From: Candidatus Saccharibacteria bacterium UBA2018 | Lineage (GTDB): Bacteria > Patescibacteriota > Saccharimonadia > Saccharimonadales > Saccharimonadaceae | Reading direction: 5' to 3' | Assembly: GCA_002335175.1 (NCBI GenBank) | Contig: DDCA01000001.1 | Location: 225,631-289,630 of the forward strand | Length of the DNA stretch: 64,000 bases | Part shown: positions 1,884 through 64,000 of the stretch, one piece after another | Layout: every line of letters starts with the position of its first letter | Numbering within the stretch: the stretch's first letter is position 1 | The notes under the pieces: model-generated | The model's database searches: none | What the model was told of the DNA's origin: nothing | The model's input: only the letters and a program-made list of their open reading frames with translations | Program-made: the position numbers and the translations under genes

Positions 1884-2477
1884 TCATAATTCTTTAGTGA
1901 TTTCATCATAAATGCTTGGACTGATTTTCTTTAAGAAATTACCCCATGATTCAAGGTATTTTACTTCCTCAGCCCAGTTTTCTTTAGAAAGCCTGTGTCC
2001 TAATAGTCGCATATTGCGCTCGCTCACATCCTTAGTTAAAGTGGGGTGATTTTCCCAGTCAAGCATATCTTGCGTTAAAAATGCTTTAACTGCCGTTTCC
2101 GGATAGCCCAGAAGGTTTCCTGCGTTCGAATGACTTTCCTGAATGTTATCAAACGCTGCTTTTAGCTGCAAAGCTACTCTTTTACTTGGAGCGACGTAGA
2201 CTCTCATAACTTCCTGTGCCATGCTGGACGAGTCATTGGTACGCGCTTCCATAATTTCAACGGTATTTACATGCGACAGCTTCAACTCAGAAAGTATAGA
2301 GGACAGCGTGTCTATCAGCGAGGTTTCGATATGGATAGTATCGTCTGTGGAGCCGAATGGTCTGCCTTGCATTACGACTTGCGCAGATGGCTTTAGCCCA
2401 CCGTAAACCAATAGAAGACTCGCCTTGTCGTGCGCTAACATTCCTTTAAGAAGCTCTAAGTCCTTAATTGCTTTCAT
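1884..2477 (-). CDS. hypothetical protein (low-GC islet gene 1)
   Basis: ORF 1884..2504. The track start at 2504 is a TTG; the first ATG is at 2477 (MKAIKDLELLKG...). The sequence is visibly AT-richer than the neighbours. No recognisable motif. Confidence 0.45.
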   Translation of the reverse strand: MKAIKDLELLKGMLAHDKASLLLVYGGLKPSAQVVMQGRPFGSTDDTIHIETSLIDTLSSILSELKLSHVNTVEIMEARTNDSSSMAQEVMRVYVAPSKRVALQLKAAFDNIQESHSNAGNLLGYPETAVKAFLTQDMLDWENHPTLTKDVSERNMRLLGHRLSKENWAEEVKYLESWGNFLKKISPSIYDEITKEL

Positions 2478-2565
2478 CAGTATATGATAACAAAAAGCCT
2501 TCAATGAGGAGGCTTATCATATCGTGCTAATACTGGCAGCCTCTCATGGACGCACTTCGCAATAA

Positions 2566-3396
2566 TTAATCTAGCAGAGCAGATAACAAACTTTTTCCTG
2601 CTTCTTCGATCGTCCCATTCCTAGCATGATCAATCCAATATGTCTTAATAGCGTTAGCCCCATCTGTACTGGCCCTTGCTAATATTAGGCATGTTTGGAA
2701 AATGTGATTACGCGCCTCGTCATCGGTAGCTTGCTCATACAGCAATCGTAACGTAAGAAACGTACTATCACCTTTCATAGACAAAGACTCTTTCCCATTA
2801 GGTATTGCTGCATATGCTCGAATAGATATAGCGCCTAGTATTACTGAAGTCACGACTCGATGAATGCCGTCTATCATTTCGATACGTCCATCTCTTTCAG
2901 CCGTGAGTACTGGAGCCGAAAGAATCTGATCAAGGTCTGATTTAGGTCTAAATTCATTTAACCCAGCTGGATCTTCAGAAGGGTCTGGGTATTTATTAAA
3001 GTAGTCCACTAGATACTTAGCGAAGGCTGTCGGGCTGTTACGGATCTCGTCACTATACACAATGTCATTGATATGCGGTTTTGTACCTGTGAGCGTCAAA
3101 GAACCTATCGGAAGCTTAATATCAAGCCACTCGTATGATGTATCAGTTACTGCATGAAACACACCATTCATGCGGTACGTATATGAAAGTGATTCCAGGA
3201 GTCTATCTATTTGATTATCGCTTAGTAAGCTAAGTGCTTCATGTAATGTCCCATTCTCTGACGAAATCGAATCACCTAGAATATTTGGAAATTCTGCTTC
3301 TATATATGCACGTGCAACATCACGATATGAGACATCTTCATCATAGATTTCTAAAGCTTGCGATTTCGTGACTGAGGTTTCGGGTACATTCGACAT
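2566..3396 (-). CDS. ParB/sulfiredoxin-fold (ParB N-terminal nuclease-like) domain protein
   Basis: ORF 2566..3414. The track start is a TTG; the first ATG is at 3396 (MSNVPETS...). It contains IKLPIGSLTL...PVLTAERDGRIEMIDGIHRVVTSVILG, which matches the DGxHR core motif of the ParB/Srx fold. AT-rich. Confidence 0.5.
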   Translation of the reverse strand: MSNVPETSVTKSQALEIYDEDVSYRDVARAYIEAEFPNILGDSISSENGTLHEALSLLSDNQIDRLLESLSYTYRMNGVFHAVTDTSYEWLDIKLPIGSLTLTGTKPHINDIVYSDEIRNSPTAFAKYLVDYFNKYPDPSEDPAGLNEFRPKSDLDQILSAPVLTAERDGRIEMIDGIHRVVTSVILGAISIRAYAAIPNGKESLSMKGDSTFLTLRLLYEQATDDEARNHIFQTCLILARASTDGANAIKTYWIDHARNGTIEEAGKSLLSALLD

Positions 3397-3436
3397 GCAT
3401 ATATAATAAAACAAATATACTATATAGTCAATATCC

Positions 3437-3512
3437 TGGCAGGGGCAGCAGGACTCGAACCTACGACACCTGGTTTTGGAGACCAGTGCTCTACCAACTG
3501 AGCTATGCCCCT
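3437..3512 (-). tRNA. tRNA-Trp (anticodon CCA), CCA end encoded
   Basis: The reverse complement reads GGGGCATAGCTCAGTTGGTAGAGCACTGGTCTCCAAAACCAGGTGTCGTAGGTTCGAGTCCTGCTGCCCCTGCCA. It forms a cloverleaf with anticodon stem CTGGT/ACCAG, loop CTCCAAA, and T-arm GTAGGTTCGAGTCCTGC. Confidence 0.92.
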
Positions 3513-3554: not shown

Positions 3555-4523
3555 CTACTTAGACTGCTGTACTCGCACTGCACGGCGGAAGCGCCGCTCC
3601 GTATCTGGGTCGGCATAACGGACAATCGGGTCTGATGCGAGCGCCCTGTTTTTCTTTTGTACCCGGGCATTTTCTTTTTGCAGTTCCGATACAAAGTAAT
3701 TTTCAATCAGCCATTCGCGCCCTGGTACGGTTTTGCCTTGCACTGTCATCATCCATAGTTCATCACTCCACTTGGCTGTTTCGACAATTCGAAGGCGCTC
3801 GGCTATCATCATTGGGCCTGTCGGTAGCTTAGCGATAGTGTTCTTTACCAGCTTTTCCCCTAGTTCTTTGTCGTTCACCAATACATCAACAGCGAGTGTC
3901 CGTACCCCGTTTGGCGTGACATGCACGGCATCAATCTTTTGGTTATGAATCCAGATGACTTCTCCACTCAGGCTTCTTAACTTCGTCGACCGTAGTGTCA
4001 GGCGTTCAACAACACCAGTGACATTCCAAAATGATTCTACTTTGATGTAGTCTCCCACCGTAAACCAACGTTCAATAATGATCACGGCACCGGCCGTAAT
4101 GTCCCGTAGCAATGGCCCGGCAGTTTGGCTCGCCACAACTATAAAGACAGCACTGGCACCGATGGCAGCTGCACCACTTCCGCCTAGCTGGCGGCTGCCC
4201 TCGGGGCTAAGCATCCGCCACACTAAATACGCAACCACCGCCACAATCACAACTCGCACTACCGCTACCGTAACACCAAGATACGTCTCGACTTGCCGCA
4301 GCCGCAGAGCCTTTAGGGCATTTGATTCATTGTCTGAGCGGACGGCAACCTTTTGGGCGATAAAAATAATCAACTGCGCCACGAATCGGCTTAACCAGTA
4401 GCTAACGAGTACTGAGCCGATTAAAATTAAAATCGACCGGTAGGCGTTCGGTTCTGACAAAAAGCTGCCGACTTCTTGCATTGTCCTATCTATAAAATCC
4501 TGCTCAAACATAACCTTACCCAT
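3555..4523 (-). CDS. mechanosensitive ion channel (MscS family) protein
   Basis: Three predicted TM helices are followed by the MscS beta-domain signature (GDYIKVESFWNVTGVVERLTLRSTKLRSLSGEVIWIHNQKI). The start is placed at the ATG at 4523 (MGKVMFEQ...). The longer track ORF would overlap the divergent gene. Confidence 0.8.
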   Translation of the reverse strand: MGKVMFEQDFIDRTMQEVGSFLSEPNAYRSILILIGSVLVSYWLSRFVAQLIIFIAQKVAVRSDNESNALKALRLRQVETYLGVTVAVVRVVIVAVVAYLVWRMLSPEGSRQLGGSGAAAIGASAVFIVVASQTAGPLLRDITAGAVIIIERWFTVGDYIKVESFWNVTGVVERLTLRSTKLRSLSGEVIWIHNQKIDAVHVTPNGVRTLAVDVLVNDKELGEKLVKNTIAKLPTGPMMIAERLRIVETAKWSDELWMMTVQGKTVPGREWLIENYFVSELQKENARVQKKNRALASDPIVRYADPDTERRFRRAVRVQQSK

Positions 4524-4668
4524 TGTAGCGAAGCATACTGAGGATTCAAGGTGTAAAAAGTACTTACTACCACTTGCCAAAAGCATAAGCACCTCTATAT
4601 AATAACGAGCAGAATCAACACGTGAAGGAGGCGGGACCCTAGTTTTGTAGGTGTTCGACAGAGGTGGA

Positions 4669-5886
4669 ATGAACATACTAATGCTAGGGTGGGAATTACC
4701 TCCGCACAATAGCGGTGGACTCGGGGTCGCCTGCTACTACATGAGCAAAGCCCTTGCTCTGAAGGGTGCTTCCATTGACTTTGTAGTTCCCTACAAGGCT
4801 GATCACCCCAATGCCGGTTTTATGACTATTCACAGTGCCACCTCTCTAAACCCACTTCATCGGAATGGCATGGGTGCTTACGACAATCCAGCAATTGCCG
4901 ATGCCCTGCACCGAAAGCCGGGAGAAGGTCTGAACAATATCCGGGATGTCCAGGCAGAGTATGTTTCGTATGTCGAGAGTATGGTTAAGGACAAGTCTCC
5001 CGATGCTATCCACGCACACGACTGGCTCACCATCGAAGCTGGCATGAGAGCAAAGGAATTAACAGGTGCTCCCCTAATCGTTCATGTTCATGCAACAGAA
5101 TTCGACCGATCCGGACAGGGCTACGGCAACCCGCTGGTCCATGAAATTGAACAGCAAGGTCTTTTGATGGCTGACCGTATTTTTGCAGTATCTAATATTA
5201 CCAAGGGGCTCATCGTCAGCCGCTATAATATTCCGGCTGATAAGATTGAGGTTCTTCACAATGCGTTTGACCCAATTGAGCTGACTAATTACACATACGA
5301 CCTAAGGACATATAAATACTTGGAACACCTCCGATCCGAGGGATTTACGGTTGTATCAACGGTTACGCGCTTCACGGTTCAAAAAGGCCTCATTCATTTT
5401 TTAAAGGCAGCTGCGCGAGCCAGCGAGCGATACGATAAATTAGTTTTTCTTATGGCCGGCGACGGCGAGCAACGCGACGAATTGGTTCGCCTGAGTGCAG
5501 ATCTTGGGATAGCCGACAAAGTATTCTTTACAGGTTTCGTCCGCGGCCGACAATGGCGGGATGCGTACAGCGTATCAGATGTGTTTGTGATGAGTTCGGT
5601 ATCGGAGCCGTTCGGTCTGACCGCCCTCGAGGCCGCTCACCACGACAATGCCTTAATTATTAGCAAGCAGTCTGGCGTAGGTGAAGTACTCGACAGTATT
5701 TTCCGGTTCGATTTCTGGGATATAGATCGGTTAGCCGACCAGATGGTCGCCGTCGCAGCATCAGGAGCTTTGAAACACGAGCTTAAGGCCAACGTTAAGC
5801 GGGAGTACGCTCGGTTGTCGTGGGACGATGTCGCTGCCCGCTGCCTTGCGATATACCAGCATGTCAGGGTTGGGGTCGCCTCATGA
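4669..5886 (+). CDS. GT-B glycosyltransferase, glycogen/alpha-glucan synthase-like (GT4/GT5-like)
   Basis: MNILMLGWELPPHNSGGLGVACY... at the N-terminus and a C-terminal EPFGLTALEAA motif are typical of retaining GT-B synthases. ATG at 4669 is preceded by GAGGTGG. The stop overlaps the next start (ATGA). Confidence 0.75.
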   Translation: MNILMLGWELPPHNSGGLGVACYYMSKALALKGASIDFVVPYKADHPNAGFMTIHSATSLNPLHRNGMGAYDNPAIADALHRKPGEGLNNIRDVQAEYVSYVESMVKDKSPDAIHAHDWLTIEAGMRAKELTGAPLIVHVHATEFDRSGQGYGNPLVHEIEQQGLLMADRIFAVSNITKGLIVSRYNIPADKIEVLHNAFDPIELTNYTYDLRTYKYLEHLRSEGFTVVSTVTRFTVQKGLIHFLKAAARASERYDKLVFLMAGDGEQRDELVRLSADLGIADKVFFTGFVRGRQWRDAYSVSDVFVMSSVSEPFGLTALEAAHHDNALIISKQSGVGEVLDSIFRFDFWDIDRLADQMVAVAASGALKHELKANVKREYARLSWDDVAARCLAIYQHVRVGVAS

Positions 5887-7112: not shown

Positions 7113-9051
7113 GCCAGTCGTACTGTCAAATGGCGAACTTCATGTAGGTATCAATACAAATGGACTCGTCCATGACCTTTATTTCCCATACGTTGGCCTT
7201 GAAAATCACTGTGCACAGAATAACCTCCGCCATAAGGTAGGCATCTGGGTCGACGGCGCAATCAGTTGGCTTGATGATGGGGCTTGGGACGTCAAGGTAT
7301 GGACAGCCGAAGGCGCGCTAATTGGTCATGTACGGGCAATCCACGAGGCACTTGGTGTCATATTGGAATTTGACGATGCGGTCGACAGTGACGTCAGCTT
7401 GTTCATGCGAAACATTCATGTCATAAACGACAGAAACGAAGCACGCGATATTCGCTTATTCATGCATCAAGCATTCGCTATTGGGGATACCCGAAGTAAT
7501 ACCGACACTGCACAATATCTGCCGGACAGTGATGCGATTCTACACTACCGCGGTCGCAGAGCATTTGTCATATCGGGCGTGGACTCATCCGGCCAGGCGT
7601 TTGACCAGCATTCTATCGGCCTTTTTGGAATTGAAGGCCGCGAGGGAACGTATCGTGATGCCGATGACGGAGAACTATCCGGCGCAGCTGTTGAGCATGG
7701 CCGAGTAGACTCTACTATTCGTTTTCAGATGGAAATTGCAGCACATGATTCCGCCAGGATTCACTATTGGCTTGCAGCTGGCACCTCAACGCGCGAAGCC
7801 CTTCACATTCACAAAAACGTGAGCGAGACCGGGCTCGAAGCTTGCCTTCAGAGCACAGCGTTGTGGTGGCATGAATGGCTTAAGCCAGTCCATGCCGTAA
7901 GCCAACGGTTACCAAAGCAGTACCGGTCTTTATTCACTCACAGCGCTCTCGTTGTAAAAGCGCATATCGATAAGCGCGGCGCCGTGATTGCTAGCACCGA
8001 CACGACAATGCTTAATTACTCGCGTGATGCCTATGCCTACTGTTGGCCGCGTGATGCTGCCTATGCATTATGGCCGCTTATCCGGTTGGGATACGTGAGT
8101 GAGCCGCGCCGCTTCTTTGAATTTGCCCGTAGAGGCTTGCACCAAACCGGCTATCTGATGCATAAGTACCAAGCGGACGGGGCCCTAGGTTCCAGCTGGC
8201 ATCCATATATCCACGGGTCAATCAACGCTCCCCCTATCCAAGAGGATGAAACGGCATTAACACTGTTTATGTTTGCTCAGTTTTATCACGCACAAAACGA
8301 CCCTACATTATTAACTGAGTTTTACGGAAACTTCGTCACACCGATGGCGGACTTCCTTGCAGGATACATCGATGAAACAACCGGCTTGCCACGGCCAAGT
8401 TATGATTTGTGGGAAGAAAATTTCATTACGTCAACCTATACGACCGCGGTTGTCCACGCCAGCTTAATAGCTGCAGCAGATTTGGCTGAGGCAGCGAATG
8501 ACTCTGATTCAGCTGTTCGGTGGCGTTCCGTCGCAGACGACATACAACGCTGTGCTCACAAAAAACTGTTTAGCACCGAAACCGGCCATTTCCTGAAAGG
8601 TCTCCGCCCCCTCGATGACGGAGCATATGAGCCGGATACGACAATTGATATGGCGGCGTTCTACGGTTCATTTATGTTCGGTCTGTTCGACCTTTCGAGT
8701 GACGAAATCATGCGCTCGTTTGAGACGCTAAAGTCCACCTTTTCGTTTACCCCGGATCTGCCGGGGCTGCCCCGTTATCAAGATGACAGTTATCACCGCA
8801 CCGAACGGTCGGGGTATGGTAATTGGTGGTTTATCTCTTCGCTTTGGGTTGCTCAGTATGCTGCAGAAGCCAATAAAAAACAGCTGGCCAACAGCATCAT
8901 TTCTTGGGTTGAGTCGCAGGCAGGTTCTGCCAACATGCTGGCAGAACAATTGGAGCCAGGCAGTTTAAAGACCTTGTCTGTATCCCCACTTGTTTGGAGT
9001 CATGCCGAGTTCATGGCGACGTTACTCGATACCGTTGAGGAGCCGTCATGA
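7105..9051 (+). CDS. glycoside hydrolase family 15 protein (glucoamylase/glucodextranase-like)
   Basis: 648 aa. YSRDAYAYCWPRDAAYALWPL and DLWEENF motifs are characteristic of the GH15 catalytic (alpha/alpha)6 domain. It overlaps both neighbouring genes, consistent with an operon. Confidence 0.8.
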   Translation: MARPVVLSNGELHVGINTNGLVHDLYFPYVGLENHCAQNNLRHKVGIWVDGAISWLDDGAWDVKVWTAEGALIGHVRAIHEALGVILEFDDAVDSDVSLFMRNIHVINDRNEARDIRLFMHQAFAIGDTRSNTDTAQYLPDSDAILHYRGRRAFVISGVDSSGQAFDQHSIGLFGIEGREGTYRDADDGELSGAAVEHGRVDSTIRFQMEIAAHDSARIHYWLAAGTSTREALHIHKNVSETGLEACLQSTALWWHEWLKPVHAVSQRLPKQYRSLFTHSALVVKAHIDKRGAVIASTDTTMLNYSRDAYAYCWPRDAAYALWPLIRLGYVSEPRRFFEFARRGLHQTGYLMHKYQADGALGSSWHPYIHGSINAPPIQEDETALTLFMFAQFYHAQNDPTLLTEFYGNFVTPMADFLAGYIDETTGLPRPSYDLWEENFITSTYTTAVVHASLIAAADLAEAANDSDSAVRWRSVADDIQRCAHKKLFSTETGHFLKGLRPLDDGAYEPDTTIDMAAFYGSFMFGLFDLSSDEIMRSFETLKSTFSFTPDLPGLPRYQDDSYHRTERSGYGNWWFISSLWVAQYAAEANKKQLANSIISWVESQAGSANMLAEQLEPGSLKTLSVSPLVWSHAEFMATLLDTVEEPS

Positions 9052-9722
9052 GCGGGATAGCGAAAAAACTAGGGTCTGCACTCCCCAGGCACCTTTTACC
9101 GACAACGCAGGCTGTTAAGCGGATGATAACACGGTTTGCCGACGAGTATGGCCTAGTGTACTTCGGGTATGTCAGCCAGCGCAGTGACGATCATCACATA
9201 GTGCGCGGCTTAACGGTTTCAACTAAACACATTGACGACCACTACTGTATTGGTACCTACGACAACTATGATGTGGTGTTCGTGGAAAGGCGCGATTCGA
9301 TACAGGGCAAGGAGCATGTTTGGCACATCATGGAGTTCGACCTGAAGACCGACAAAGATATTCCACATACTTTTATCGGGTCCGGCACACACGGGAAAGG
9401 CTTTCATGAGCTGCTTTCGACAAAATATGGCAACTTGGTCCCTACGCAGCTGGGATTGACTCGGGACTATCTCGAGCGTTTCAAGGATAATTTCAAGCTT
9501 TATGTATCAGCCGAACACGCCGTCACCATTGAAACCGTTATTACTCCGGAAGCCGCCGAGATCATCGCAACGCACTTTAAAGGCCTTGTGGTCGAAATTA
9601 CGGACCAGGCACTGTACCTATACTCAGAGAAGTCTCACCTGACTCCGGAATTACTTGAAGCTATGCTCAAAAACGGTACGTGGCTCGCTCGCACTATAGA
9701 TATAAATAGCCGGTCATTGTAG
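9048..9722 (+). CDS. hypothetical protein, last gene of the alpha-glucan operon
   Basis: 224-aa ORF whose start overlaps the GH15 stop by 4 nt. No motif recognised. Confidence 0.5.
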   Translation: MSGIAKKLGSALPRHLLPTTQAVKRMITRFADEYGLVYFGYVSQRSDDHHIVRGLTVSTKHIDDHYCIGTYDNYDVVFVERRDSIQGKEHVWHIMEFDLKTDKDIPHTFIGSGTHGKGFHELLSTKYGNLVPTQLGLTRDYLERFKDNFKLYVSAEHAVTIETVITPEAAEIIATHFKGLVVEITDQALYLYSEKSHLTPELLEAMLKNGTWLARTIDINSRSL

Positions 9723-11058: not shown

Positions 11059-11139
11059 GGCTTGAGTATAGCAGAGTATATTACTGTAGCCATCTTGTTT
11101 TTTACCCTCCTATTCGATAGAATTATCAGGTATAGAAGT

Positions 11140-11216
11140 GCCGCTTTAGCTCAGCTGGTTAGAGCAACTGTTTTGTAAACAGTAGGTCCTCGGTTCGAGT
11201 CCGAGAAGCGGCTCCA
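11140..11216 (+). tRNA. tRNA-Thr (anticodon UGU), CCA end encoded
   Basis: GCCGCTTTAGCTCAGCTGGTTAGAGCAACTGTTTTGTAAACAGTAGGTCCTCGGTTCGAGTCCGAGAAGCGGCTCCA. Anticodon stem ACTGT/ACAGT, loop TTTGTAA. Confidence 0.9.
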
Positions 11217-60887: not shown

Positions 60888-61508
60888 TTATTTCTTGCGC
60901 GTATTCTGAACAAGCTCGATTGATTCAACACGTAAACGAGGCGCCTCATCGTTAAGTAAGGCTTCATACAGGTGTTTGCAAGCTTTTAGATACTCGTCGC
61001 GGCTTGTGACTTTGTCCCGAGCGACATGGTGGTGAGCTCCAATTGAGTAGTCTGGTCGGACAACCATGAGACCCCTAACGGCAGCGGCCGTTAATTCGTC
61101 CAAAATTACGTCCATTTTAAGGTGTATACCCGGGTCGGGCTGGCCAGCGCGTTCAATTTGAAGACGCTTTGCTAGCACACGAGGCTTATTAGAACGTTGC
61201 TGGAGTTCACGCTCCATACGGGCCATCTGCTGGGGGATACTCGAGGTGGCTCCTCGCATCAGGCTGGCTGGCCCCGGTGCGTTATCAATCGACTCGTCAG
61301 AATATAAAAAAAGTCTCTGTAGGCCGGGTTGTTCGTCGGGCCTATAGAATGCTTCTAAGTACTTGGTCAGTCTGCTATCTGGAACGAACTTAAGCTGAGC
61401 AACGCTGGGTAGAGCGTTCGGAACCCGGTCAGATGCTTGCCGTGCTTCGCTCATACTAAAATTATGCGGACTTTTTAAGGTTTCGTCAACCGATGTCGCC
61501 GTAGCCAT
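60888..61508 (-). CDS. hypothetical protein
   Basis: 206-aa ORF. The ATG at 61508 overlaps the upstream gene by 34 nt; an alternative ATG lies at 61454. No motif recognised. Confidence 0.5.
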   Translation of the reverse strand: MATATSVDETLKSPHNFSMSEARQASDRVPNALPSVAQLKFVPDSRLTKYLEAFYRPDEQPGLQRLFLYSDESIDNAPGPASLMRGATSSIPQQMARMERELQQRSNKPRVLAKRLQIERAGQPDPGIHLKMDVILDELTAAAVRGLMVVRPDYSIGAHHHVARDKVTSRDEYLKACKHLYEALLNDEAPRLRVESIELVQNTRKK

Positions 61509-62008
61509 TCGTACATTGCAATGCCGGCAGCAACTCCTACATTTAGAGAGCGTGTACTACCGAGCTGTTCGATAGCCACAACATACGATGCTTCAGCGAG
61601 CAGTTCCGGTGATAAACCAGGACCTTCTTGGCCGAAAATCATTACGGCATTTAGGGGAAGTTCTGCCTGGCTTAACGGCTGGCTATCCTTTGTATTGTCA
61701 ATGGCAAGCAGTACTTTCTGCTTTCGTGTCATCTCATCTATAAACTCGGCAATGGTTTGATAGTAGTGAATGTAAAGATATTTGTCTGTCATCATAGCCC
61801 CTCGTTTGTTCCACTGCCGTCGGCCGATCACATGAAGATGCCGAACGCCAACCGCATTGGCCGAACGAACAATCGTACCCATATTGAAGTCGCGAAGCGT
61901 ATTTTCAATAGCTATTTCGAGTTCGATACCCCGGTTATCCAACAGCTTCACAATATCTTCGTGCGCCTTGCCTTTTAAGTCGTCTGTAACGTTACGAGAA
62001 TCATTCAT
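61475..62008 (-). CDS. TrmH/SpoU family RNA 2'-O-methyltransferase
   Basis: NMGTIVRSANAVGV, MIFGQEGPGLS, and IEQLGSTRSLNVGVAAGIAMYEW. These are the three SPOUT motifs. Confidence 0.85.
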   Translation of the reverse strand: MNDSRNVTDDLKGKAHEDIVKLLDNRGIELEIAIENTLRDFNMGTIVRSANAVGVRHLHVIGRRQWNKRGAMMTDKYLYIHYYQTIAEFIDEMTRKQKVLLAIDNTKDSQPLSQAELPLNAVMIFGQEGPGLSPELLAEASYVVAIEQLGSTRSLNVGVAAGIAMYEWLRRHRLTKP

Positions 62009-62018
62009 CCGTACTTAC

Positions 62019-62062
62019 TGTACCAAATAAAAAAGACCGTTCGGCCTTCTTAATTTGGTACA
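62019..62062. repeat. terminator-like imperfect palindrome between divergent genes (possible island boundary relic)
   Basis: Outer arms are TGTACCAAAT (62019-28) and ATTTGGTACA (62053-62). The inner part AAGACCGTTCGGCCTT is flanked by A- and T-runs. It lies between two divergent gene starts, where a terminator is not expected. Confidence 0.4.
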
Positions 62063-62096
62063 CCTCACGAAACGTTATTCCAACTTTGTCAACAAC

Positions 62097-62471
62097 ATGT
62101 CATTGCTTGATCGGTGCCTCGCGATCCACCAGGCCAAGCCCGTCATCCGACCGCCGCGCCCAGCGCCTCGCCTCCTGAAGGTTCGCCTGAGTGATGAGGA
62201 TCGGGTGACCATCGTCGAAGAGTTCCGGGCTGGTGTAGCAACTACCCGGAAGCTCGCTCAACGCTACGAAGTCAGTGACTATGCCATCCGGATGCTGCTA
62301 CGACGAGCCGGCATCGCCTCACGGCAGCCTGGAACCTCAGCTAAGCAGCGACGGCAGGTCCGCAAGCTCTGGCTCGAAGGAGCGTCAGTTGCTGTCATCG
62401 CCAAGACCGTTGGGGTTGGTCAGACGACGGTGCGGCTGGTGGTGGCGGATTTGGTGCGGTCTGGGATCTAG
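62097..62471 (+). CDS. double helix-turn-helix DNA-binding protein
   Basis: The first ATG of ORF 62055..62471 (the track start is a TTG). There are two HTH-like units: RKLAQRYEVSDYAIRMLLRRAGI and SVAVIAKTVGVGQTTVRLVVADL. Visibly G+C-rich (many GCC/CGC/CGG codons). Confidence 0.6.
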   Translation: MSLLDRCLAIHQAKPVIRPPRPAPRLLKVRLSDEDRVTIVEEFRAGVATTRKLAQRYEVSDYAIRMLLRRAGIASRQPGTSAKQRRQVRKLWLEGASVAVIAKTVGVGQTTVRLVVADLVRSGI

Positions 62472-62524
62472 CTAGTTGATAGTTCCTCACTAAGAGCAAA
62501 TGATGAATATCGTATAATGCAATC

Positions 62525-63070
62525 ATGAAGATGCCCGACGAACTCCCGAAAACCCACGAGGCACTAGGTCATGAGATTGATCGCCTGCACGAAAGTGCCA
62601 AGTGGAGTTCTCAAGGTCAATTCGAGCAAATGAAAATCTGGAGACTCGCCAATCTTTTGTTTGGTTTACCAGCTGCCGTCCTTGCTGCCATATCTGGTGG
62701 AACTGGCCTCGCGAACGTTCATAGCGCAGATCCCTCGAGTACGCCTGCCATACTTGCTCTTCTTTCTGCTGGGTTTGGAGCAGCCTTGACGACCTTGAAC
62801 CCTTCTCGTCGTGTAACTCAGGCACAGGCCGCGGGCAATGCCTACCTAGAGGTACAAACCGCCGCCCGACAACTTCTGAACGTCGACCTCGTTGAAATGT
62901 CATTCGCTGATGCACGGGCAAAGCTCGAAGAACTAACCGTCCGACGTGACGAAATTAACAAAACGGCTGATCCACCAAGCAGGCTCGCATACTGGCGAGC
63001 GAAACGAAATTTGACCAAAGACGGCGGCCAAGATTACGAAATCGACAACGGTAAGGGTGGAGGCCAGTAG
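62525..63070 (+). CDS. SLATT-like two-transmembrane effector-domain protein
   Basis: 181 aa with an N-terminal helix, two adjacent TM helices (LANLLFGLPAAVLAAISGGTGLA and PAILALLSAGFGAALTTL), and a C-terminal helical region (AAGNAYLEVQTAARQLL...LEELTVRRDEINK). This layout is characteristic of SLATT domains. The stop overlaps the next start. Confidence 0.6.
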   Translation: MKMPDELPKTHEALGHEIDRLHESAKWSSQGQFEQMKIWRLANLLFGLPAAVLAAISGGTGLANVHSADPSSTPAILALLSAGFGAALTTLNPSRRVTQAQAAGNAYLEVQTAARQLLNVDLVEMSFADARAKLEELTVRRDEINKTADPPSRLAYWRAKRNLTKDGGQDYEIDNGKGGGQ

Positions 63071-63942
63071 TGGCCTTGACTACGCCCGCCGCTTTTAACG
63101 AGTTCAAGGATCTTCTGCTGTTGACAGAAGCCCAAAAGGAAACAGTCTCTTCACGTCGATCCACTGCTCACGGTTATCTAAAGGAATCTTTCGGGACGAG
63201 CTCGAACATGCCGCTGACTCGTACGCGCCTAATCGGATCAGCAGGCCGCAGCACTATCATTCGACCACTCGATGATATAGACGTCATGGCTGTCTTTGAG
63301 AACAAGGACGATATATTTGAAACCTACAGGTATGATTCTCATGCATTCTTGTACCGAATTCGAGATGCGCTTTCTGCCTATAGCGTAAGAATTGTGGGCG
63401 CGCGAGGTCAGGCGGTACGATTGTTTTACCAGTCTGCTCCCCATGTCGACATTGCACCGGTGTTCAAGTGGAGGAGTGGTGGCTATGCATTGCCGAACGG
63501 TACTGGGGGTTGGCTAACTACAGATCCAGACACGCATGCTGCGTATATGGTCCAGCGGAACGAAGAGCTGGGGTCCAATCTGAAGCCCATGATAAGAATG
63601 CTGAAACGCTGGAACAACGTTCACAGTAAGCGCCTGAAGTCGTTCCACCTGGAGATGCTAGTCGCGAACTCCTTTACAAGTCTTGGTTCCGACTCTCGTA
63701 AGGCTGCGGAGGTCTTTTTCGGCTATGCGAAGGATCACCTCTCAGTGAACGACCCGGCAGGTCATAGTGGAGACCTGTCGAGTTACCTGACATGGACAGC
63801 ACGCGTAGAAGTACAGACCAGCATGGAGAGTGCTCGTGAACGTGCTAGTCGTGCCAATGCCGCTGAAATTCGTGGAGATCATGCCGAGGCAATCCGCTTG
63901 TGGCGGATCATTTTCGGTGACGAGTTTCCCACTTATGGCTGA
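63070..63942 (+). CDS. SMODS-like minimal (pol-beta fold) nucleotidyltransferase
   Basis: GTG start overlapping the upstream TAG (TAGTG). F.EF...L.L...Q...V..R N-terminal helix, then LIGSAGRSTIIRPLDDIDVMAVF (GS...DxD) and PHVDIAPVF (third acidic residue), and a helical C-terminal half. This matches the SMODS/CD-NTase-like minimal NTase pattern. Confidence 0.6.
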   Translation: MALTTPAAFNEFKDLLLLTEAQKETVSSRRSTAHGYLKESFGTSSNMPLTRTRLIGSAGRSTIIRPLDDIDVMAVFENKDDIFETYRYDSHAFLYRIRDALSAYSVRIVGARGQAVRLFYQSAPHVDIAPVFKWRSGGYALPNGTGGWLTTDPDTHAAYMVQRNEELGSNLKPMIRMLKRWNNVHSKRLKSFHLEMLVANSFTSLGSDSRKAAEVFFGYAKDHLSVNDPAGHSGDLSSYLTWTARVEVQTSMESARERASRANAAEIRGDHAEAIRLWRIIFGDEFPTYG

Positions 63943-64000
63943 GGTACTTGGGGAACCCAGGCTCCTGCTTGACCTCTACAAAAGGAAATAGGCCTCCACC

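Follow-up and report, generated by a model that had tools for sequence, protein, structure and literature searches.

The final two kilobases of the window, a 64,000-nucleotide (nt) stretch of contig DDCA01000001.1 from Candidatus Saccharibacteria bacterium UBA2018, hold three genes in an island at the 3′ end of a tRNA-Leu(CAG) gene. The three open reading frames (ORFs) lie at 62055/62097–62471, 62525–63070 and 63070–63942 on the plus strand, and their neighbors are minus-strand housekeeping genes: trigger factor, histidyl-tRNA synthetase (HisRS), a 206-aa ORF and a SpoU-family methyltransferase whose start lies at 62008. An earlier note, made from the sequence alone, had placed all three genes on the plus strand and had read them as a helix-turn-helix (HTH) gene, a SLATT-like two-transmembrane (2TM) gene and a SMODS-like nucleotidyltransferase gene that together form a nucleotide-signaling defense module. 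The ORF calls agree on the strand, and the module reading holds up as well: the second and third proteins are full-length matches to existing PADLOC profiles of CBASS, an antiphage signaling system based on cyclic oligonucleotides, so that automated tools would be expected to call the locus cbass_type_I. We consider it highly probable that this Saccharibacteria genome carries a complete minimal type I CBASS within a 1.97-kb island at the 3′ end of tRNA-Leu(CAG).

The predicted cyclase and effector

The third gene (63070–63942, plus strand) encodes a 290-aa protein that profiles and a structure model identify as a cGAS/DncV-like nucleotidyltransferase (CD-NTase) of the SMODS kind, a predicted cyclic-oligonucleotide synthase. 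The protein matches Pfam SMODS (E = 1.2e-16, 61.8 bits against a gathering score of 26.5) and, over residues 1–290 of 290, the PADLOC Cyclase profile PDLC00823 (3.6e-107). An AlphaFold2 model built from 30 homologs (predicted local distance difference test, pLDDT, 93.7; predicted template modeling score, pTM, 0.90) shows the cGAS/DncV-like bilobed fold, and its top Foldseek match is 6p82 at a template modeling (TM) score of 0.86, followed by CdnB, CdnD, CdnC, DncV, CdnE and CdnG; almost all of the Foldseek matches listed are named CD-NTases or cGAS-like cyclases. By sequence, too, the closest solved structure is 6p82 (PaCdnD; E = 2.9e-20, 27% identity), and with its nearest structures in clade D the cyclase appears to be clade-D-like. 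The GS-x11-DxD motif and downstream aspartate picked out in the earlier note are present as G56-S57-x11-D69-x-D71 and D127. All five residues are invariant in a 30-sequence alignment, and the D69/D71 catalytic pair aligns with D62/D64 of PaCdnD.

The second gene (62525–63070, plus strand) encodes a 181-aa protein that is, judging by profiles and hydrophobicity, a SLATT_4 two-transmembrane CBASS effector. It matches the PADLOC Effector 2TM profile PDLC00710 over its full length (1.7e-80) and exceeds the cut-off of NCBIfam SLATT_4 (NF033632; 6.6e-32, 110.5 bits against 55), in agreement with the SLATT-like assignment made beforehand. Two tightly spaced transmembrane helices had also been noted, and two hydrophobic segments, at about residues 38–63 and 72–92, are indeed what the Kyte-Doolittle profile gives, 19-residue windows rising above 1.2 only at about residues 36–65 and 70–94. 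Among 83 related loci, about 50 have an ortholog of this effector directly 5′ of the cyclase. Many relatives of the cyclase (L096, L097, L127, L131, L151 and others) are paired with a four-transmembrane (4TM) effector (PADLOC PDLC00722, 1e-111 to 1e-118), in operons that often hold a second cyclase (PDLC00776), so that the cyclase clade swaps effectors.

The GTG start of the cyclase gene overlaps the TAG stop of the effector gene by one base, as the note had it (TAGTG at 63068–63072), and a GGAGG can be read in the sequence 7 nt 5′ of the GTG; this overlap implies that effector and cyclase are translationally coupled. Six nt before the ATG of the 2TM gene, a −10-like TATAAT hexamer (62513–62518, plus strand) can likewise be read, with no Shine-Dalgarno (SD) sequence, and close relatives also have a TANNNT motif 6–10 nt before the effector start and no SD. 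This arrangement suggests that the 2TM-cyclase transcript is leaderless or nearly so, and the TANNNT motifs seem to resemble those of leaderless actinobacterial genes. A consensus promoter scan picked another candidate, TTGATA-17-AATGAT at 62476–62504.

Next to the 2TM-cyclase pair come the HTH gene and then SpoU in one direction, and tRNA-Leu and then a FAD-linked oxidase gene in the other; the genes flanking the cyclase include no Cap2/Cap3 (type II), no HORMA/TRIP13 (type III) and no type IV ancillary genes. With no Cap2/Cap3, HORMA or TRIP13 nearby, the architecture is that of a type I CBASS, in the classification reportedly due to Millman et al. in 2020. PaCdnD (6p82, 6p8j, 6p8u), the best sequence and structure match of the cyclase, resembles it in length (about 300 aa) and in the aligned GS...DxD...D residues. 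Unlike the present system, PaCdnD needs HORMA and TRIP13 and signals to the NucC nuclease, whereas here no such genes are found and the predicted effector is a membrane protein. The CdnD of P. aeruginosa ATCC27853, which belongs to a type III CBASS, is said to make cyclic tri-AMP, a result attributed to Ye et al. in 2020. Closer in architecture is EcCdnF04-SLATT6, a type I CBASS with a SLATT effector that was tested in E. coli and that has the same two-gene core with no Cap2/Cap3 or HORMA/TRIP13 (bioRxiv 10.1101/2023.05.21.541620); the pair described here differs from it in having a SLATT_4 rather than a SLATT_6 effector, a cyclase nearest to clade D rather than F, and a Saccharibacteria episymbiont as host. 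The same work corrects the statement in the earlier note that few SMODS-SLATT pairs have been characterized experimentally: in it, type I CBASS operons with SLATT effectors protected E. coli, restricting phages at least 10,000-fold.

The island beside tRNA-Leu(CAG)

Locus L001, which is identical to the window over their overlap, extends it past position 64000. About 95 bp past the cyclase gene lies tRNA-Leu(CAG) on the minus strand (window-equivalent 64038–64124; L001 10969–11055), and beyond it follow a convergent FAD-linked oxidase gene, a second tRNA-Leu, a methyltransferase, RecG and tyrosyl-tRNA synthetase (TyrRS). The expectation that the module might continue past the window edge was therefore not borne out: the next features are the tRNA and the convergent oxidase gene, and the module is complete at three genes. 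The island spans 1.97 kb, from 62063 to about 64033, between the 3′ end of tRNA-Leu(CAG) and the SpoU gene.

A scan of a genome collection with the SpoU protein returned 80 related loci (60–68% identity), nearly all of them titled Saccharibacteria or Saccharimonadales. Synteny of the SpoU locus is conserved in 80 of 80, in line with the earlier placement of the host among Saccharibacteria-like members of the candidate phyla radiation (CPR), and none of the 80 carries the HTH, 2TM or cyclase genes in the corresponding locus. The ancestral order reads methyltransferase, tRNA-Leu(tag), FAD oxidase, tRNA-Leu(cag), SpoU, HisRS. Between tRNA-Leu(cag) and SpoU there are 25–79 bp in L010, L022, L028, L030 and L088, and 2029 bp in the window genome. 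The absence of the three genes from all 80 relatives, together with the short tRNA-SpoU gap in five of them, indicates that the genes were inserted between the tRNA 3′ end and SpoU, and it upholds the earlier claim that the module was horizontally acquired. Across Saccharibacteria, tRNA-Leu(CAG) is conserved beside SpoU, in differing orientations: one species group has the tRNA co-directional, and a second has it inverted and separated by about 545 bp.

Both borders of the island carry an 11-bp direct repeat, AATTTGGTACA, a candidate attachment (att) core. The left copy lies at 62052–62062 and is matched exactly by the right copy at window-equivalent 64034–64044 (L001 10965–10975), outside the window. 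The repeat is made up of the last 7 nt of tRNA-Leu(CAG) and the next 4 nt, and is the sole local alignment between the two junction regions. Its copies fall precisely on the tRNA 3′ end at one border and precisely on a terminator at the other.

That terminator is a palindrome at 62019–62062, read on the minus strand, which the earlier note had described as terminator-like and as sitting unexpectedly between two divergent gene starts. The palindrome is real, and its place between the start of SpoU (62008) and that of the HTH gene is confirmed. Its 21-nt arms are 86% complementary, its minus-strand RNA has a folding energy of −24.6 kcal/mol (z = −7.0; 0 of 200 shuffles fold as well), and a terminator scan of that strand marks 62051 to 62030, followed by a T run. 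Its position, however, can be explained. At the empty sites of L010, L022 and L028, a terminator hairpin directly follows the tRNA and reaches back into its ACCA end, and in L028 the outer stem pairs the full tRNA end (GTGTACCA...TGGTACA). The window palindrome shares the L028 layout, with TGTACCAAAT...ATTTGGTACA enclosing an inner stem rich in G+C, plus a minus-strand T run, and excising the island together with one copy of the repeat rebuilds the order tRNA-terminator-SpoU with a 47-bp spacer, within the range of the relatives. Hairpins of the same design at the empty sites, together with the tRNA-end repeat, lead us to read the palindrome as the ancestral intrinsic terminator of tRNA-Leu(CAG): insertion of the island at the tRNA 3′ end would have displaced it to the left border and left it between the SpoU and HTH starts. 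At the right end of the island (63943–64000 within the window, running on to about 64033), a hairpin at 63988–64023 (−23.4 kcal/mol, z = −3.2) is followed by a minus-strand T-rich run and would now serve as the terminator after tRNA-Leu(CAG). An Rfam scan of the window returned tRNAs only.

The source is a metagenome assembly and the relatives of the island's genes are high-GC, both of which would be expected if CBASS genes of a co-occurring actinobacterium had been misjoined to Saccharibacteria DNA during assembly or binning. The exact cyclase protein, however, occurs on at least 23 sludge or bioreactor metagenome contigs and on a 686-kb contig of GCA_035437425.1. For either of the two proteins used as queries, no fewer than 23 contigs originating in different samples and produced by different assemblers were read, and the 13 that were retrieved for comparison all have the same junctions at ≥99.98% identity over 7 kb. 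Both junctions thus recur in independent assemblies that differ in project and assembler, on contigs of up to 846 kb, and they coincide with the tRNA 3′ end and the displaced terminator, a signature of biological origin. These independent assemblies exclude a chimera, and the probability that we still attach to one is vanishingly small. No strain with an empty site was found among these contigs, as every contig coding for the identical SpoU protein also has the island.

Classical islands at tRNA 3′ ends show integrase-mediated duplication of the att site. The present island is like other tRNA-integrated islands in lying exactly at the 3′ end of tRNA-Leu(CAG), in being bordered by a direct repeat that may derive from the tRNA end, in leaving the tRNA intact and in carrying defense cargo; unlike the classical ones, it measures only 1.97 kb, has no integrase gene and is bordered by a repeat of only 11 bp.

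The tRNA-Leu(CAG)-SpoU interval is a variable spot, holding 0.7–3.4 kb of unrelated cargo in eight species (L013, L014, L015, L016, L020, L031, L040 and L055) and being empty in five. The cargo of the eight, from translations read by eye, includes inositol-monophosphatase-like, NUDIX-like and membrane proteins, and nothing like the three genes of the window appeared among these translations, although no PADLOC scan was made of these ORFs. In L015, three copies of the tRNA-Leu 3′ end (AGTCCTCTCATCTGTACCA) lie at 8930–9380, with masked N runs between them; a terminator hairpin follows two of the copies, and the third enters a masked stretch. This triple tRNA end may reflect serial integrations at one tRNA. 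Between the stop of the FAD oxidase gene and the genuine tRNA, L001 also holds, at 11107–11153 (window-equivalent 64176–64222), a degenerate copy of tRNA-Leu(CAG) that comprises its 5′ part. In this copy, GCAGATGTGGCGG ... GTAGACGCGCT, 21 nt take the place of the D-loop (by eye), and a similar GTAGACGCGCT lies upstream of the tRNA in L015.

Two further features of the window lie away from the island. At 1884–3414, two hypothetical ORFs (206 and 282 aa; GC 0.43–0.45) stand directly 3′ of tRNA-Trp (3437–3512, minus strand); Pfam gave nothing significant for them beyond one sub-threshold chance match, and the segment may be another island beside a tRNA. The 206-aa ORF between SpoU and HisRS (60888–61508, minus strand) overlaps the 3′ end of SpoU by 34 nt; Pfam gave nothing significant for it, and tblastn returned no match from the loci of the 80 related species.

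Origin of the pair and the accompanying HTH gene

The closest cyclase/effector pairs are 83/82%, 76/70% and 71/61% identical to those of the island and lie on contigs of GC 0.58–0.62; most of 80 further metagenomic relatives are on contigs of GC 0.58–0.68. Named homologs of the cyclase, at 63–69% identity, come from Thermoleophilaceae, Mycolicibacterium aubagnense, Mycobacterium adipatum, Amycolatopsis mediterranei, Acidimicrobiales and one Cyanobium, so that Actinomycetota account for five of the six, and the top plasmid match of the cyclase is an Arthrobacter plasmid (48% identity). These affinities indicate that the island was probably acquired from high-GC, Actinobacteria-like bacteria. 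Related CBASS also occur on low-GC contigs (L113, L114, L125, L149 and others) that may or may not be of CPR bacteria, their matches to Saccharibacteria loci being at 23–43%. A phage origin of the CBASS genes found no support, as no cyclase relatives were found in viral contigs and PHROGs returned unnamed families only. In L090, the relative with the 76%-identical cyclase, two direct copies of a three-HTH gene (4444–5004 and 7255–7824), one of them N-terminally truncated, flank a 2TM-cyclase-orf126 block, which looks inserted into the three-HTH gene or duplicated with it.

The earlier note had also arrived at a high-GC, actinobacterial donor, from composition, having seen the whole block as richer in G+C than its flanks. 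The donor agrees with the high-GC, mostly actinomycetotal relatives; the compositional argument stands for one gene of the three. Against a background of 45 ORFs (GC 0.500 ± 0.026; GC at third codon positions, GC3, 0.520 ± 0.048), the HTH gene is a clear outlier, with GC 0.624 (z = 4.7), GC3 0.68 (z = 3.3) and the poorest codon-usage fit of the 45, whereas the 2TM gene (GC 0.529, z = 1.1) and the cyclase gene (GC 0.520, z = 0.75) fall inside the genome range. Composition alone would therefore not flag the CBASS pair as foreign; comparative synteny does.

The HTH gene itself (62055–62471, plus strand) encodes a predicted tandem-HTH, bipartite DNA-binding protein of 138 aa from a TTG at 62055, an ATG at 62097 (124 aa) also being called. 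Its matches in Pfam (HTH_38, HTH_23 and Sigma70_r4) are all weak and below gathering. A word-index search with the protein found only itself, and there was no match among plasmids; an exhaustive phmmer search returned 523 relatives, the best at 45% identity (E = 1.3e-23). The closest are proteins of 100–165 aa with an N-terminal VH..RYSN..LLDRCLA..RPPRP motif and two HTH units. Because the VH..RYSN..LLDRCLA part is encoded here from 62058, upstream of the ATG, the start is likely the TTG at 62055, within the border repeat, and one gene caller also chose it. The AlphaFold2 model (pLDDT 88.6) has one N-terminal helix and two three-helix HTH units. Its fold matches are weak (E of at least 0.01, TM score about 0.3) and include Cbp1, the Pax paired domain and the bipartite DNA-binding domain of Tc3, so that a regulator and a transposase-like DNA binder are not separable on this basis.

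The module had been credited with its own HTH regulator, which would make this protein a dedicated repressor that holds the CBASS operon off until a stress signal arrives, in the manner of CapW or CapH/CapP. CapW is a transcriptional regulator of CBASS. CapH/CapP are likewise presented as CBASS transcriptional regulators (bioRxiv 10.1101/2022.04.27.489752). As in those systems, the HTH gene adjoins a CBASS operon, here directly upstream and co-directional, and the model predicts a bipartite DNA-binding fold with confidence. Of 66 eligible related loci, 9 also have a gene of the family no more than 600 bp downstream of the cyclase, whereas 244 kb of distant flank gave only 2 hits (binomial P ~5e-11 for enrichment near the cyclase). 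In all nine, however, the gene is convergent, so that its co-directional, upstream position in the island is atypical, and the family is missing from most related operons, including the closest (L091). The closest homolog (45% identity; L093 265–3937, on a contig of GC 0.59) adjoins not CBASS but Gabija, to which it is convergent (GajA 2e-171, GajB 6e-126). Unlike CapW and CapH/CapP, moreover, the protein has no WYL domain or other sensor domain, no metallopeptidase partner and no match to their families; it belongs to an uncurated family and has its tri-helical HTH units in tandem, and its GC3 is unlike that of the operon. We therefore lean against a dedicated regulator while granting it a real chance. 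Calling the gene the module's own regulator went further than the evidence, as the family is a recurrent but optional neighbor of several defense systems in high-GC contigs; the gene may regulate the operon or mark the mobile unit.

Predicted function and significance

In an ordinary type I CBASS of this composition, phage infection would switch on the CD-NTase, which is presumed to produce a cyclic oligonucleotide; the nucleotide would activate the translationally coupled SLATT_4 two-transmembrane effector, and the activated effector would permeabilize the membrane and abort the infection. We infer that the pair is expressed and acts in this way in its Saccharibacteria host.

The logic could also be reversed. 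Panoptes pairs a nucleotide cyclase with a 2TM effector in an inverse arrangement (PMC12657230), and in a guard-type scheme of this sort the cyclase would make its nucleotide constitutively and thereby hold the 2TM effector off until phage sponges or nucleases depleted the nucleotide and freed the toxin. An operon that has no sensor or regulator proteins, and whose translation is coupled as in a toxin-antitoxin pair, would suit such a scheme. Panoptes, however, consists of an mCpol (Cas10-like) cyclase and a Cap15-related 2TM-beta-barrel effector, whereas the island encodes a CD-NTase and a helical SLATT_4 protein, and type I operons of CD-NTase and SLATT act as ordinary CBASS in phage screens. 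Inverse signaling at this locus strikes us as very improbable.

It is slightly less improbable, though still unlikely, that the pair is a passenger, silent or in decay, left over from a larger integrated element after the loss of its integrase, and neither expressed nor used in the Saccharibacteria host. The island has no recombinase, the HTH coding sequence starts within the border repeat with no obvious promoter of its own, and a promoter style like that of actinobacterial leaderless genes may fail in this host. Set against these are three intact ORFs with conserved catalytic residues, a −10 box and a strong internal SD in the operon, and an island that is essentially invariant (≥99.98% identity over 7 kb) in every contig read for the species. 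From general knowledge of reductive evolution, a reduced genome of about 0.7–0.85 Mb would also be expected to purge useless, potentially toxic DNA. The near-identity of the contigs reflects clonality, however, so their invariance gives no population evidence for selection.

Several observations weigh against a complete type I CBASS acquired as a single island from a high-GC donor. At the level of the proteins, the cyclase reaches 140.9 bits with NCBIfam CBASS_cyclase_b (5.6e-41), under the equivalog cut-off of 200, and the effector scores 14.6 against a gathering score of 27 with Pfam SLATT_4 (PF18186; E = 0.028). At the level of the borders, the 11-bp repeat is short, a shared exact word of at least 11 nt turning up anywhere in the flanks in 17 of 2000 shuffles, and no integrase or recombinase domain is found among the island's three genes. 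As to origin, GC3 is host-like in the effector (0.49) and the cyclase (0.54), compared with 0.57–0.68 in their relatives, and is donor-like in the HTH gene (0.68), so that the three genes may lack a common history; a sign of separate HTH insertion would be a tRNA-end repeat that parts the HTH gene from the 2TM gene, and none was seen by eye in 62472–62524. Synonymous sites are saturated against the closest relatives (pS of at least 0.77, with pN about 0.10), which made dN/dS unusable and which means that no recent donor is known and that selection since transfer is not measurable.

Taken as a type I CBASS inserted beside tRNA-Leu(CAG), the system adds nothing new to the workings of CBASS. What it contributes is a resolved insertion site, an account of the palindrome and a finding on the HTH family, and it illustrates how an odd terminator separating divergent genes can be recognized as the trace that an insertion has left beside a tRNA. 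The defense systems of CPR bacteria have been surveyed, and they are few per genome, yet dense (PMC12259885); we found no literature devoted specifically to CBASS in Saccharibacteria.

Saccharibacteria are host-dependent, living on other bacteria with genomes that are tiny, and Actinomycetota are the known hosts of cultured Saccharibacteria. The Actinomycetota affinity of the genes would fit gene flow from host to episymbiont, the route and direction that we infer for this transfer. A broader proposal, which we hold to be rather doubtful, is that the episymbiont took an abortive-infection system from its host Actinobacteria lineage at a recurrent tRNA-Leu hotspot, and that the 'RYSN' tandem-HTH proteins are an undescribed family that marks or controls defense cassettes (CBASS with 2TM or 4TM effectors, and Gabija) in high-GC bacteria. 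At the level of the locus, a CBASS of the suicide type that is complete by its genes, and invariant across many sludge samples, suggests that such a cell can keep an abortive-infection system.

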